Positions 8,547-12,302 of a stretch of 12,302 nt of DNA are shown in pieces (positions within the stretch are counted from its first letter, which is position 1; each line of letters opens with the position of its first letter). The translations under genes and the position numbers were made by a program. Source of the stretch: a virus (lineage: Duplodnaviria; Heunggongvirae; Uroviricota; Caudoviricetes); the IMG/VR virus record IMGVR_UViG_2896607866_000011. One strand, written 5' to 3'. The notes under the pieces were generated by a model, which was not told where the DNA came from, did no database searches, and was given only the letters and a program-made list of their open reading frames with translations.

Positions 8547-9080
8547 ATGATGCACTTAAAAAACATTTCTGCTGGTAATCCTGAAACAAAAGAGCAATAC
8601 CAGCTAACGAAACAATTTAACATCAAATGGCTTTATACAGAGGATGGGAAAAACTGGTATGAGGAACAAAAGAACTTTCAGCCTGATACGTTGAAAATGG
8701 TCTATGACCACAACGGCGTTATTATTTGTATTGAAAAGGATGTTTCAGCAATTAATCCGGAAGGCGCAAGCGTCGTTGAGGTTCCTGATATTACAGCAAA
8801 TCGCCGGGCTGATATTTCAGGTAAATGGATGTTCAAAGATGGCATAGTGATAAAGCGAACTTATACCGGGGAAGAGCAGAGGCAACAAGTGGAAAATGAA
8901 AAGCAAAGCCTGTTGCAACTTGTCAGGGATAAAACCCAGCTATGGGACTCACAGCTACGGCTGGGCATCATTTCCGCCGGGAATAAGCAGAAATTAACCG
9001 AGTGGATGCTCTACGCGCAGAAGGTCGAATCCACAGACACCTCCAGTCTGCCAGTAACGTTTCCCGAACAACCAGAATGA
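8547..9080 (+). CDS. U: Tail fiber assembly protein U
   Basis: 177-aa [41 protein letters not shown]... matches Mu U; paralogous to U' on the opposite strand. Confidence 0.85.
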   Translation: MMHLKNISAGNPETKEQYQLTKQFNIKWLYTEDGKNWYEEQKNFQPDTLKMVYDHNGVIICIEKDVSAINPEGASVVEVPDITANRRADISGKWMFKDGIVIKRTYTGEEQRQQVENEKQSLLQLVRDKTQLWDSQLRLGIISAGNKQKLTEWMLYAQKVESTDTSSLPVTFPEQPE

Positions 9081-9083
9081 GAG

Positions 9084-9110
9084 AAGGCCCGCTATCGGGC
9101 CTTAATTTTT
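9084..9110. terminator. Bidirectional hairpin terminator shared by convergent U and U'
   Basis: AAGGCCCG-CTAT-CGGGCCTT stem-loop (9084..9103) followed by AATTTTT, between the stop codons of U (9080) and U' (9109). Confidence 0.5.
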
Positions 9111-9636
9111 ACTCTGGTTTTTGTGGCCATTCTGGCTTTGCCGTATCCACACGGCTGACCAGAACACTGTAGCGTTCCCATGACTCCAGTCGTGCGCGTT
9201 CCTCATCTGTTGCCATATTCAGCCTGACAGAGCGCTCCAGCGGCTGGATGACTGATTCAGCTTCGGAAAGCAATGCGGCTTTTTGTGATTCGGCCTGTTG
9301 CTGCTGTTCGTCTGCCGTATAAATCCGCTTAACCACAGCTCCGTCCTTAAACATCCACTTCCCGGAATCATCGGCACGACGATTTGCTGTTATATCGGGG
9401 ACCTCAACGACGCTAAAGCCTTCAGGATTAAGCGTGGAGGCATCTTTAGTGATGGCGACAATAATATTATTTTCATCGTAAACAATCTTTATTGTATCTG
9501 GCTGAAAGTTCTTCACTTCCCCATACCAGTTTTTTCCGTCTTCTGTCCACAACCAGATTACGTCAAAATTCTTTGTTAATTCGTACTGTTCCAGTGTTTT
9601 AGCGTTACCCGCTTTAATGTTCTTTAAGTGCATCAT
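9109..9636 (-). CDS. U': Tail fiber assembly protein U' (alternative host-range set)
   Basis: 175-aa minus-strand [41 protein letters not shown]..., paralog of U. Confidence 0.85.
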
Positions 9637-9637
9637 A

Positions 9638-10624
9638 TTAAACGCTCGCTACATTATACCAAGTGCCATTTATATACTTTTGAATCGGTCTGTAATAAAC
9701 ACCCGCAATATTATCGGCAGAGTTGGAACCTGTATCCTGAACATTAATACCAGACAATACATGACCTGAAGGGCACTGAAAATTCCATGTTTGCCAGTTG
9801 TTCACTCCATAATATTGCTGTGAACCAAGTCGAACATCTTTCACATATCTGGAATCAAAATTGCCATAGTTGCCGGGAATAACTTGCGAACCGCAAAGCC
9901 AGTTCCCGTTATTATCCATGTACGCCTGACCATCGGTGCCATTGGCTGTCCTTGAGTTATTAATCATGTAGATGCCAAATTGCCTATTCCCCAGCCCACC
10001 AATTACGAATTTACGGTCGGTATGGTCCTGGCGAAGCAATGCCTGCGCACCATCGTTGGATACCGCATTACGGCCCATAATAACGTTCTGGTCACGCATA
10101 TGAATCCACATGCCTGTACTGCTGTTAATTAAAAAACGGTTTGTAAATATATCTCCTGTAACAACCAGACCATGCCCCATGCTTATCCGGCCAGTTCTGA
10201 GATTAAGCGTAAAGGGGCGTAGTGGCCCTATATTACCATTTTCCCCTTCATTCTCTCGTGTAGGGATGATATGCAGGCATTCTTCAGAACGACGAAAAAT
10301 GGCACCAAAAGATGAATTAAATATTCTCAGTGCATTGACCGTCGATATTTTTACTTCACTGCTGAAAAGGGCTTTAACAAGAACATACAGAGCATCCCAT
10401 TTAAGATTCATCAGGTCTTTAACCCGGCCGCCAGTGAGGTGGTGTCTCCATTTGAAATACTCATTGCCGTTGTCGCCTGTTTCAAACCACATGTATGAAT
10501 CAGTATCGCTGTCGGCATCATTTTTAAATCCAATCTTTGCCCAGTCAGTATTCCGAATCCAGGCAAGGATTGAGTCGTTTTCAAAAGTAAGTCCACCGGA
10601 CAACGTATCGCCATTTTTTTGCAC
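9638..10624 (-). CDS. S': Tail fiber protein S' variable part (S'v); frame continues upstream to the gix site near 10662 and lacks an attached constant part in this orientation
   Basis: 328-aa minus-strand ORF ending ...[19 protein letters not shown]; position and orientation as Mu S'v; reading frame stays open past the first Met toward gin. Confidence 0.75.
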
Positions 10625-10639
10625 GGCGTTACCAGCCTT

Positions 10640-10673
10640 GTTTACCGTTTCCTGTAAACCGAGGGGCCGTTTC
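10640..10673. repeat. Right G-segment border with gix recombination half-site
   Basis: TTCCTGTAAACCGAGG (10649..10664) matches the gix/hix-family half-site; the second half-site looks degenerate. Confidence 0.4.
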
Positions 10674-10717
10674 TGGCCTGCATGGCATGATTTCCGCTTT
10701 TAAACGGGGAATTCAGC

Positions 10718-10915
10718 GTGCTGATTGGCTATGTAAGGGTATCAACAAATGACCAGAATACAGACCTGCAACGAAACGCTCTTGTTTGTGCAGGATGTGA
10801 ACAAATATTTGAAGATAAATTAAGCGGAACAAGGACAGACCGACCGGGATTAAAACGTGCTTTAAAGCGCCTTCAAAAAGGAACGCATATAGAAAACGAC
10901 GATCGAATCAATTAA
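10718..10915 (+). pseudogene. gin: gin G-segment invertase remnant: N-terminal about 55 aa fused in frame to the last about 9 aa (about 128 codons deleted)
   Basis: GTG-initiated ORF MLIGYVRVSTNDQNTDLQRNALVCAGCEQIFEDKLSGTRTDRPGLKRALKRLQKG matches the Gin N-terminus and then jumps to (A)HIENDDRIN, the Gin C-terminus; only 65 codons versus about 193. Confidence 0.85.
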
Positions 10916-11008
10916 ATCGATCTGTATTACCGATCGATTATGTCCCGATAACCACACCCGACTGATGAGATTTTTTAAGATAACGGCGAATTGATGCAAG
11001 GAGGTGAA
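10896..11008 (+). promoter_or_regulatory. mom operon control region: three clustered GATC (Dam) sites upstream of the com-mom promoter
   Basis: GATC at 10901..10904, 10919..10922 and 10932..10935 within 35 bp, immediately upstream of com; corresponds to the Dam/OxyR-controlled region of Mu Pmom. Confidence 0.65.
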
Positions 11009-11197
11009 ATGAAATCAATTCGCTGTAAGAACTGCAACAAACTGTTATTTAAAGCGGATTCCTTTGATCACATTGAAATCAGGTGTCCGCGTTGCAAACG
11101 TCACATCATAATGCTGAATGCCTGCGAGCATCCCACGGAGAAACATTGTGGGAAAAGAGAAGAAATCACGCATTCTGACGAAACCGTGCGTTATTGA
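11009..11197 (+). CDS. com: Com, zinc-finger translational activator of mom
   Basis: 62-aa [54 protein letters not shown]... (Cys4 motifs) matches Mu Com; AAGGAGGTG Shine-Dalgarno directly upstream of ATG 11009. Confidence 0.88.
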
Positions 11198-11843
11198 GTA
11201 TGAAGGCCAGATTGTTGGCTATGGTTCAAAGGAGCTGCGCGTTGAAACCATATCCTGCTGGCTGGCCCGCACAATCATTCAGACAAAGCACTATTCCCGC
11301 CGTTTTGTGAATAACTCTTACCTTCACCTGGGAGTATTCAGCGGGCGTGATCTGGTTGGCGTTCTCCAGTGGGGATATGCCCTTAACCCCAACTCAGGTC
11401 GTCGTGTCGTGCTTGAAACGGATAACCGGGGCTATATGGAGTTGAATCGCATGTGGCTACACGACGACATGCCCCGCAACTCTGAATCACGGGCCATCAG
11501 CTACGCGCTGAAAGTTATCAGATTACTGTATCCGTCAGTGGAGTGGGTTCAGTCCTTTGCTGACGAACGCTGCGGACTCGCAGGCGTTGTGTATCAGGCG
11601 TCGAATTTTGATTTTATTGGCAGCCATGAAAGCACGTTCTACGAGCTGGATGGTGAGTGGTATCACGAGATAACGATGAACGCGATTAAGCGCGGAGGGC
11701 AACGAGGCGAGTATTTGCGAGCTAATAAGGAGCGTGCCGTGGTGCACAAATTTAATCAGTATCGCTACATCAGATTCCTGAACAAGCGAGCAAGGAAGCG
11801 GCTAAATACCAAACTATTCAAGGTTCAGCCATACCCTAAGTGA
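11148..11843 (+). CDS. mom: Mom DNA-modification enzyme (adenine N6 modification, anti-restriction); start assigned to in-frame GTG 11148, and the ORF is open from ATG 11118
   Basis: ORF ...[41 protein letters not shown]...[10 protein letters not shown] matches Mu Mom; overlaps the 3' end of com as in Mu; GTG start gives 231 aa. Confidence 0.85.
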
Positions 11844-11958
11844 TCCCCATGTAATGAATAAAAAGCGGTAATTAATACAGCTGTTTCATTTGAAGCGCGA
11901 AAGCTAAAGTTTTCGCATTTATCGTGAAACGCTTTCGCGTTTTTCGTGCGCCGCTTCA
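11844..11958 (+). promoter_or_regulatory. Mu attR: right-end transposase binding sites R1-R3 and terminal CA
   Basis: Sequence ...GAAGCGCGAAAGCTAAAGTTTTCGCATTTATCGTGAAACGCTTTCGCGTTTTTCGTGCGCCGCTTCA matches the Mu right end with repeated CGAAA(A/G)C MuA-site cores. Confidence 0.8.
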
Positions 11959-12302
11959 CCCAGCCGTTCATAGGCAATTGGCTTAATGAGATAATCAAAT
12001 ACACCACAACGTACGGCTTCAGACACCGTTTCCATATCACTGGCTGCAGTGGTAAACACCACGTCGCCGGGATAATGCGCCTGCACCAGTTCATGCAGTA
12101 AATTAATCCCTCTACCGTCAGGAAGATAGTTATCGAGCAAGATTAGCCCCGGCTTAAAACGCTCGATCATCATTCGGGCCTGCGCCAGGTTTCCCGCCAG
12201 TAATATCTGACTGAATCCGGGAATGTGACGAATATATTCCGCATGCATCTCTGCCAGCGGCGTTTCGTCCTCAACGATCAATAGGGTTAATGGAGCTGTC
12301 AT
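11959..12302 (-). pseudogene. dpiA: dpiA (citB) 5' fragment, codons 1-114 (receiver domain); ORF continues 13 codons into the Mu right end before a stop at 11919
   Basis: Minus-strand translation MTAPLTLLIVEDETPLAEMHAEYIRHIPGF...DYLIKPIAYERLG matches the DpiA N-terminus, then reads EAAHEKRESVSR* from prophage sequence; ATG is at 12300..12302, the window edge. Confidence 0.9.

Follow-up and report, generated by a model that had tools for sequence, protein, structure and literature searches.

An intact com-mom operon in a recently decayed Mu/SfMu-like prophage of Shigella flexneri, probably silent and dependent on C from another phage

RESULTS

The com-mom DNA-modification operon carried by a 12,302-nucleotide stretch of DNA (hereafter, the window) is probably a silent fossil within a recently gutted Mu/SfMu-like prophage; judged by sequence, it would be a working unit that needs the late activator C from outside. 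In kind such a fossil is already known, with one small unexplained oddity in its promoter. Under this explanation, a Mu/SfMu-like phage would have transposed into dpiA of an ancestor of Shigella flexneri and would have been gutted later by a few large events. With mor and C deleted, the promoter would be essentially off in this cell, and the operon would be switched on only by C from a co-resident or superinfecting Mu-like phage.

The remnant lies in dpiA and marks a young S. flexneri lineage

The chromosome in the window is enterobacterial and carries pagP, dcuC, and a dpiA gene split in two halves. The elements that define the insertion are as follows.

2575-2877 and 11919-12302, minus strand: the two halves of dpiA, flanking the prophage remnant
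2917-11958, plus strand: Mu/SfMu-like transposable prophage remnant of 9 kb, inserted in dpiA

The left end of the remnant reads TGTATTGATTCAC... from position 2917, and the right end, ...CGCCGCTTCA, stops at 11958. The sequence CCCAG is duplicated on both sides (2912-2916 and 11959-11963), and a 5-bp target duplication is typical of Mu transposition. The remnant thus has both Mu ends and the 5-bp duplication that characterize Mu-like transposable prophages.

The exact Mom protein, in its 241-aa form, was found on 216 contigs, all named Shigella flexneri and all with the same dpiA/cit context, which gives a lineage of at least 216 contigs. The window is essentially identical to IMG/VR contig UViG_2526164649_000013. 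Across the last 2.4 kb, 11 other copies of the remnant differed from the window by 0 to 4 changes, and sampled isolates of the lineage are ~1 SNP per kb apart. Since the copies differ so little, the sampled lineage is young. The dpiA::remnant arrangement was present in 0 of the 5,426 complete E. coli genomes searched. A literature search returned nothing relevant on a Mu insertion in dpiA/citB of S. flexneri, and neither the dpiA insertion nor the promoter allele of the window was found in the literature searched. The dpiA::Mu remnant with IS1 and IS600 is a marker for one S. flexneri lineage.

A few large events account for the decay

Decay was mapped against SfMu (KP010268). It comprised an IS1 insertion, an IS600-linked deletion of 29.7 kb, a 384-bp in-frame deletion in gin, and an 11-bp deletion in gixR, that is, four or five large events. 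SfMu positions 2903-32617 are missing from the remnant, and IS600 occupies that position. The lost interval covers B, the semi-essential early genes, mor, C, and the lysis, head, and tail genes. When SfMu C and Mor were used as tblastn queries against the window, only chance matches were obtained (best E values of 3.7 and 0.38, respectively). The deletion of C reported in a first-pass annotation of this DNA was thus confirmed, and the window lacks the cognate late activator in cis that belongs to a Mu-type Pmom unit.

On the left, the survivors are the IS1-interrupted left end, a divergent repressor gene, ner, residues 1-544 of transposase A, and IS600. On the right, they are residues 250-488 of S, U, U', S', the first 55 codons of gin, com, mom, and the right end. 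Amino acid identity to SfMu is ~30% for the repressor c and 57% for ner. Every open reading frame missed by the large events can be aligned to its SfMu counterpart free of gaps and stops (A 1-544, S 250-488, U over 177/177 residues, U' over 175/175, and S' over 321/321). The region around com and mom includes three altered or terminal elements.

10649-10664, plus strand: truncated gixR, retaining its left half, TTCCTGTAAACCGAGG, but missing 11 bp (TTTT[A/G]GATAAT) from the right half
10718-10915, plus strand: gin remnant, 65 aa versus 193, with a 384-bp in-frame internal deletion
11844-11958, plus strand: Mu right end (attR region), with two terminator-like hairpins 3' of mom

Because gixR is truncated, gixL lies inside the big deletion, and gin is deleted, the G segment is frozen. 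The gin deletion junction is near 10880/10881, roughly at -108 from the mom start site. This deletion directly upstream of the operon, the promoter change cluster, and the unique R144L substitution in Mom (the last two described below) had been missed in the first-pass annotation. An Rfam search of 10500-12302 gave no match.

The same annotation held that retention of com-mom in an otherwise heavily decayed prophage needed explaining. It is unremarkable, since every open reading frame spared by the large events is equally intact and the diversity of the lineage is low. At ~1 SNP per kb, chance alone should leave a segment of 0.9 kb intact. From these alignments, the intactness of com-mom would most likely reflect recent decay and a small mutational target, not selection for a function in the host.

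com and its translational switch are conserved

The coding part of the operon has the gene order and the com/mom overlap of phage Mu (AF083977, Mu_52/Mu_53), and both genes are full length, as first described.

11009-11197, plus strand: com, encoding a 62-aa Cys4 zinc-ribbon translational activator
11111-11131 and 11132-11152, plus strand: Com-binding hairpin, then translation-inhibition stem-loop (TIS), after the model in PMC6483171
11148-11843, plus strand: mom, with a GTG start and encoding 231 aa

All four cysteines of Com are present (Cys6, Cys9, Cys26, and Cys29), and the protein passed the Pfam Zn_ribbon_Com model with 37 bits (cut-off 22.9). The copy of NCBIfam searched with Com and Mom yielded no match, and Pfam was used instead. 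A single difference, K52E, separates Com from the Mu and SfMu proteins (61/62 residues identical to Mu). This allele is widespread, being found on at least 1,000 contigs, and it affects a disordered tail at the C terminus that RNA binding does not require (PMC6483171).

The cognate mRNA target of Com is present as a hairpin adjoining the stem-loop that sequesters the mom GUG. Hairpin and stem-loop are identical to those of Mu, and the whole of 11100-11160 is identical to Mu and SfMu in the alignment. Folding recovered both structures, the fold energy by itself being unexceptional (z = -1.3). One mRNA would thus be predicted to yield Com, which would bind the first hairpin and open the second, exposing the hidden mom start.

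Mom retains all essential residues and has one unprecedented substitution

In addition to the 231-aa frame, a longer mom frame of 241 aa is open from an ATG at 11118. Mom passed the Pfam Mom model (PF25680) with 251.8 bits (cut-off 27.1) over profile positions 1-202 of 202. It aligned end to end and ungapped with the Mu Mom structure 8BV8, with 229 of 231 residues identical. Mom is a GNAT-fold enzyme that takes glycine from Gly-tRNA(Gly) and attaches it to N6 of adenine in double-stranded DNA; the adduct then rearranges to carbamoylmethyl (PMC13219725). The Mom of the window, if made, would be expected to use the same glycine donor and the same adenine position. Residues important in Mu Mom are W38, H48, Y49, R101, S114, D139, R141, Y149, and W171 in 231-aa numbering (PMC7261163, PMC13219725); residue numbers in PMC13219725 are higher by 10, such that R141 is R151 there. 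All the experimentally essential residues of Mu Mom are unchanged in the window, and the HTH-like insertion (about residues 165-199, 231-aa numbering) is present and uninterrupted.

Only R144L (codon 11577-11579) and V188E (codon 11709-11711) distinguish this Mom from that of Mu. V188E lies within the HTH-like insertion and is benign, since Glu is the commonest residue in that column (41/115 full-length homologues); V188E and the K52E change in Com are common natural alleles. R144 lies within the sequence E-R-C-G-R-A-G, three residues past the essential R141, in what would be the GNAT pyrophosphate loop. The residues in column 144 of the same 115 homologues are Arg (68), Gly (24), Lys (10), Cys (10), and Ala (2), and never Leu. 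Because Gly, Cys, and Ala are tolerated there, an Arg side chain at 144 is not essential. The R144L enzyme is putatively active. The main texts of the Mom studies consulted contain no mutagenesis of residue 144. The search for inactivating substitutions by alignment to functional Mom, proposed in the first-pass annotation, returned two changes, one benign and one absent from the 115 homologues.

We called a substitution private where the window differs from all ten comparators and these agree with one another. The comparators were Mu, SfMu, D108, two Yersinia phages, Mu_3F6, and four E. coli prophages, and 1,261 aligned bases from gin to attR were scored. Relative to these ten close Mu-like elements, mom has nine private substitutions, two of which are non-synonymous, against an expectation of 77% (P = 7e-4). 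Among the coding changes, only R144L (position 11578) is truly unique. The mainly synonymous pattern suggests that the private substitutions of mom arose while the phage was still alive, and that most of the divergence would predate decay. At 11693-11729, a cluster agrees with Salmonella mom alleles at 5/7 sites, which identifies it as a recombinational mosaic patch.

The promoter is of the Mu type and is predicted to require C

In Mu, Pmom depends on C and is further silenced by OxyR and Fis; without C, RNA polymerase is diverted to the divergent momP2 (PMC3378877, PMC4461284). Expression of mom is cytotoxic when mistimed (PMC3378877). The dependence on C, the control through Dam methylation, and the adenine modification had all been correctly stated in the first-pass annotation. 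The counterparts in the window were located as follows.

10901, 10919, and 10932 (span 10901-10935), plus strand: three GATC (Dam) sites, at -87, -69, and -56 relative to +1
10916-10938, plus strand: perfect 7-bp inverted repeat ATCGATC/GATCGAT, holding the second and third GATC, with a 9-bp loop
10937-10952, plus strand: predicted 16-bp imperfect dyad for the C activator, centred at -43.5; the element is defined in PMC2582627
10951-10988, plus strand: Pmom core, with the -35 ACCACA at 10951-10956, the -10 TAAGAT at 10976-10981, and the +1 G at 10988

The position of +1 was taken from the -58..+20 tin7 oligonucleotide in PMC4461284. The GATC triplet, already noted in the first-pass annotation, is the counterpart of the OxyR-bound region of Mu Pmom and is the only triple GATC cluster in the window. 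Shuffling gave at least one such cluster in 26 of 200 shuffles, which is not significant; what establishes the cluster as real is its positional homology to that of Mu and its conserved position in all ten comparators. The C dyad reads ATTATGTCCCGATAAC in the window versus ATTATGCCCCAATAAC in Mu, with 14/16 positions matching and the outer TTAT/ATAA kept. The C>T change at -45 is a natural polymorphism, and the A>G change at -41 is private to the lineage. The latter falls inside the dyad and speaks against a sure response to C. The -35, the -10, and the 19-bp spacer length with its T6 run are unchanged, with no indels from -57 to +9.

With these elements, unmethylated GATC sites would permit repression by OxyR. 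The promoter, weak on account of its poor -35, 19-bp spacer, and T6 run, would need C, which would untwist the spacer and bring in RNA polymerase. We found no predicted sigma-70 consensus promoter upstream of com. Because C is deleted and no consensus promoter lies upstream, the operon should be off. Transcriptional silence of com-mom is thus the expected state, and the diverged promoter would still be expected to respond to C.

Lineage-private changes are concentrated in the promoter

The region from gin to attR has 25 private substitutions, of which 11 fall inside 62 bp (10923-10984) where 1.2 are expected, a ~15-fold concentration. The binomial probability of this clustering is 9.5e-9, or 7e-7 with an inversion (below) counted as one event and 9e-4 after multiplication by the number of windows. 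Identity over 10878-11012 was at most 88% in the 47 E. coli prophages found and in phage records, compared with ~96% in the flanks. From -65 to +21, the window differs from Mu by 14 substitutions and one 1-bp deletion.

The loop between the second and third GATC is inverted, reading TGTATTACC in the window versus GGTAATACA in every other Mu-like element, and the changes at 10923, 10927, and 10931 make up one event, a 9-bp hairpin-loop inversion. Eight substitutions lie in the spacer and discriminator, at -30, -28, -25, -24, -19, -18, -5, and -4. In the com leader, 1 bp is deleted after 10997, and position 11008 has changed from G to A. Eleven private substitutions in 62 bp, together with this deletion, are more than a purely passive fossil would lead one to expect. 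In 10901-11011 (111 bp), the window departs from the Mu-type consensus by 15 differences, every one of which misses the 45 core positions that were designated post hoc, namely, the GATCs, the dyad TTAT/ATAA, the -35, the T6 run with the -10, the Shine-Dalgarno sequence, and the ATG (P ~4e-4, or 1e-3 for 13 events).

No donor of the promoter allele was recovered. By blastn, the best matches were 88% in the 5,426 complete E. coli genomes and 87.5% in 50,697 phage records. Exact and degenerate pattern scans found no donor in IMG/VR, GTDB species representatives, or JGI metagenomes; 16-mer pattern matches were considered and rejected, their contexts being unrelated. Nor was a source for the patch revealed when blastn-short was run on the complete SfMu genome and on the window. 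Among the collections searched, the allele is carried only by the same S. flexneri remnant, and the seven metagenomic Mu-type promoters carry Mu-type bases at every variable position. A template switch or inversion explains 10923-10931; by inspection, none was found that explains 10958-10984. Reading the changes as promoter-up mutations was rejected, as the -35 is not improved, no extended -10 is created, and the spacing is unaltered.

Neutral drift in a young lineage does not account for the density of promoter changes, and some other process must at one time have acted on this segment. The pattern appears to be one of divergence under constraint. Most simply, the patch would have come by inheritance or import from a Mu-like lineage outside the sample, as with the patch in mom.

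Alternative explanations for the diverged operon

The combination of an odd promoter allele and R144L could mean that the operon is functionally dead, with the promoter patch, made up of the -41 change, the eight spacer and discriminator changes, and the leader deletion, blocking activation even when C is supplied, R144L crippling Mom, or both. The absence of Leu at 144 in all 115 homologues, the closeness of R144 to the essential R141, and the lack of the allele in all functional Mu-like phages and prophages in the sample are in keeping with this explanation. We nevertheless consider it unlikely: position 144 tolerates Gly, Cys, Ala, and Lys, promoter spacing is unchanged, and the avoidance of the core positions by all 15 promoter-region changes looks like constraint rather than decay. 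The description of the module as intact in the first-pass annotation consequently holds for gene length and essential residues, and is tempered by R144L and by the strongly diverged promoter. The odd allele and R144L are natural variants with which key positions in Pmom and in the R141 loop can be tested.

Two further explanations invoke expression in the absence of C. Read-through from the gin promoter, or outward from IS600, might give low expression and sporadic modification of host adenines. In favor of this, the interval between the gin stub and com is free of terminator-like structures, and the in-frame deletion has moved the 5' region of gin 384 bp nearer com. Yet the interval is equally terminator-free in wild-type Mu lysogens, the 11-bp deletion takes part of gixR just upstream of gin, and IS600 lies >3 kb away with the opposite-strand U'/S' between. 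Constitutive expression of mom, which is cytotoxic (PMC3378877), would also be selected against. The literature search gave nothing usable on the location of the gin promoter. Taken together, these points make read-through very improbable. We give even less credence to domestication, in which the promoter changes would have rewired Pmom for C-free expression in the host, possibly phase-variable through OxyR and Dam as in agn43. The concentration of private changes in the promoter fits such rewiring, as does the sparing of the GATC/OxyR sites, the core hexamers, com, the TIS, and the mom sequences. Against it, nothing in the -35, -10, spacer, or T6 run points to a stronger promoter, Mom is toxic, and the lineage is young; in addition, the mosaic patch in mom that matches Salmonella alleles indicates that short stretches are exchanged by recombination in this element, a simpler origin for the promoter patch. 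Least probable of all is the specific outcome that a rewired Pmom lets S. flexneri express mom without C, with a subpopulation carrying carbamoylmethyl-adenine in its own chromosome. We thus retain the silent fossil as the preferred explanation.

An intact C gene occurs with the remnant in a sister genome

The suggestion in the first-pass annotation that a C-like activator might come from another prophage proved realistic. In sister genome IMG 2529293223, one contig (L011) carries the promoter, com, and mom of the remnant. A second contig (L041) is a 98.3% match to SfMu 7383-13308; its mor and C genes are intact, and 139/140 residues of C are identical. Because this genome holds both the remnant and an element with intact mor and C, trans-activation is realistic. 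L011 has an intact gixR and a G(-) segment (98.4% identical to SfMu) joined onto the deleted gin of the remnant. We rejected L011 as a differently arranged remnant; a simpler view is that its sequence was fused with that of a second SfMu-like prophage, as an assembly chimera or by recombination, and either way genome 2529293223 contains a second SfMu-like element. Mor/C-family genes were thus present in the sister genome and absent from the window; for the genome of the window itself (2526164649), a search of IMG/VR, which holds predicted viral regions only, gave no C-bearing viral contig.

With only ~30% identity to SfMu c, the repressor of the remnant would have a different immunity and would not be expected to exclude SfMu, which makes co-residence plausible. 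The mor-lys region was detected by PCR in 38 of 194 S. flexneri strains, and remnants occur in several serotypes (Jakhetia & Verma 2015, PMC4406740). Those PCR-positive remnants carry the mor-lys region, whereas the remnant in the window is without it and keeps the two ends. Strains that also carry a C-encoding SfMu-like phage would have two mom copies able to fire together. If mom were expressed, a pathogen would decorate its own chromosome with a phage hypermodification, and restriction barriers, DNA exchange, and sequencing-based methylome calls would be affected.

Relation to known systems

In addition to gene order, the remnant shares with phage Mu the Com hairpin, the inhibition stem-loop, the three GATCs, the -35, the T6 run, the -10, the 19-bp spacing, and the right end. 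It is unlike Mu in having no C or Mor in cis, an internally deleted gin, and Mom R144L; the promoter differences include the inverted 9-bp loop between the second and third GATC. SfMu has the same host species and a related backbone (A, 92% amino acid identity; U, 98%; mom, 98.8%), and its immunity region, with the c and ner identities given above, is unlike that of the remnant.

In E. coli, the promoter of agn43 (flu) is immediately preceded by an OxyR-binding region that contains three GATC sites. Mu Pmom likewise has three GATC sites in the OxyR-binding region upstream of the promoter (PMC3378877). Unlike that of agn43, the Mu switch gates an activator-dependent promoter. Precedents for cryptic Mu com/mom in Shigella are the S. 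flexneri remnants of PMC4406740 and an element on a chromosome of S. dysenteriae. The com and mom products of the cryptic Mu-phage of Shigella dysenteriae (VCOM_SHIDY) belong to the same 90% clusters as the Com and Mom of the window, and the cryptic S. dysenteriae Mom is a different allele of 235 aa.

Integration site, IS elements, and immunity region

The Mu-like remnant lies in dpiA (citB) and is bounded and interrupted as follows.

2575-2877 and 11919-12302, minus strand: halves of dpiA, a response-regulator gene split by the prophage
2912-2916 and 11959-11963: CCCAG target duplication
3155-3921: IS1, separating the Mu left end from the repressor gene
4031-4540, minus strand: repressor gene, intact (169 aa)
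4703-4957, plus strand: ner, intact
6567-7825: IS600, exactly on the 29.7-kb deletion junction (A codon 544/S codon 250)

IS1 is a recent arrival, since it is missing from L003, a public locus bearing the same remnant that is otherwise 99.9% identical to the window. [quoted passage not shown] It may still produce repressor. In several other isolates (L004-L008), ~2.4 kb downstream of mom, the location of dpiA and dpiB, has no called genes; this gap may mean that the dpiAB two-component system has decayed further.

The G segment

The segment is in the G(+) arrangement, with S and U on the plus strand and U' and S' on the minus strand. It is frozen in this orientation because the invertase gene is internally deleted, gixR is truncated, and gixL falls within the large deletion of the remnant.

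10649-10664: truncated gixR, its right half short by 11 bp
10718-10915: gin remnant, from which 384 internal bp have been lost in frame (65 aa versus 193)

In a sister IMG genome, one contig, L011 (IMGVR_UViG_2529293223_000012), carries the gin deletion, variant mom promoter, com, and mom of the remnant. On this contig they adjoin an intact gixR and a G(-) segment that matches SfMu at 98.4% identity. Both mor and C are intact on a separate contig of the same genome, L041 (IMGVR_UViG_2529293223_000002). L011 arose either through chimeric assembly or through gix-mediated recombination with a second SfMu-like prophage.

Variation in the mom promoter and coding sequence

The following features lie in and around com-mom.

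10862-10999, minus strand: 45-aa ORF overlapping the mom promoter
10916-10938: perfect 7-bp inverted repeat (ATCGATC/GATCGAT) with a 9-bp loop
11693-11729: short mosaic patch inside mom, with seven differences from Mu and SfMu

All other Mu-like elements carry the loop of the repeat in the opposite orientation; the inversion gives the appearance of three point substitutions and looks like a hairpin template-switch event. Another loop SNP, 10924 G>A, segregates among Shigella flexneri isolates. Five of the seven differences in the mom patch, which includes V188E, match Salmonella mom alleles, and the patch shows that short-patch recombination occurs between mom alleles. The 45-aa ORF, which one public assembly (L003) annotates as a gene with no family match, is most likely spurious.
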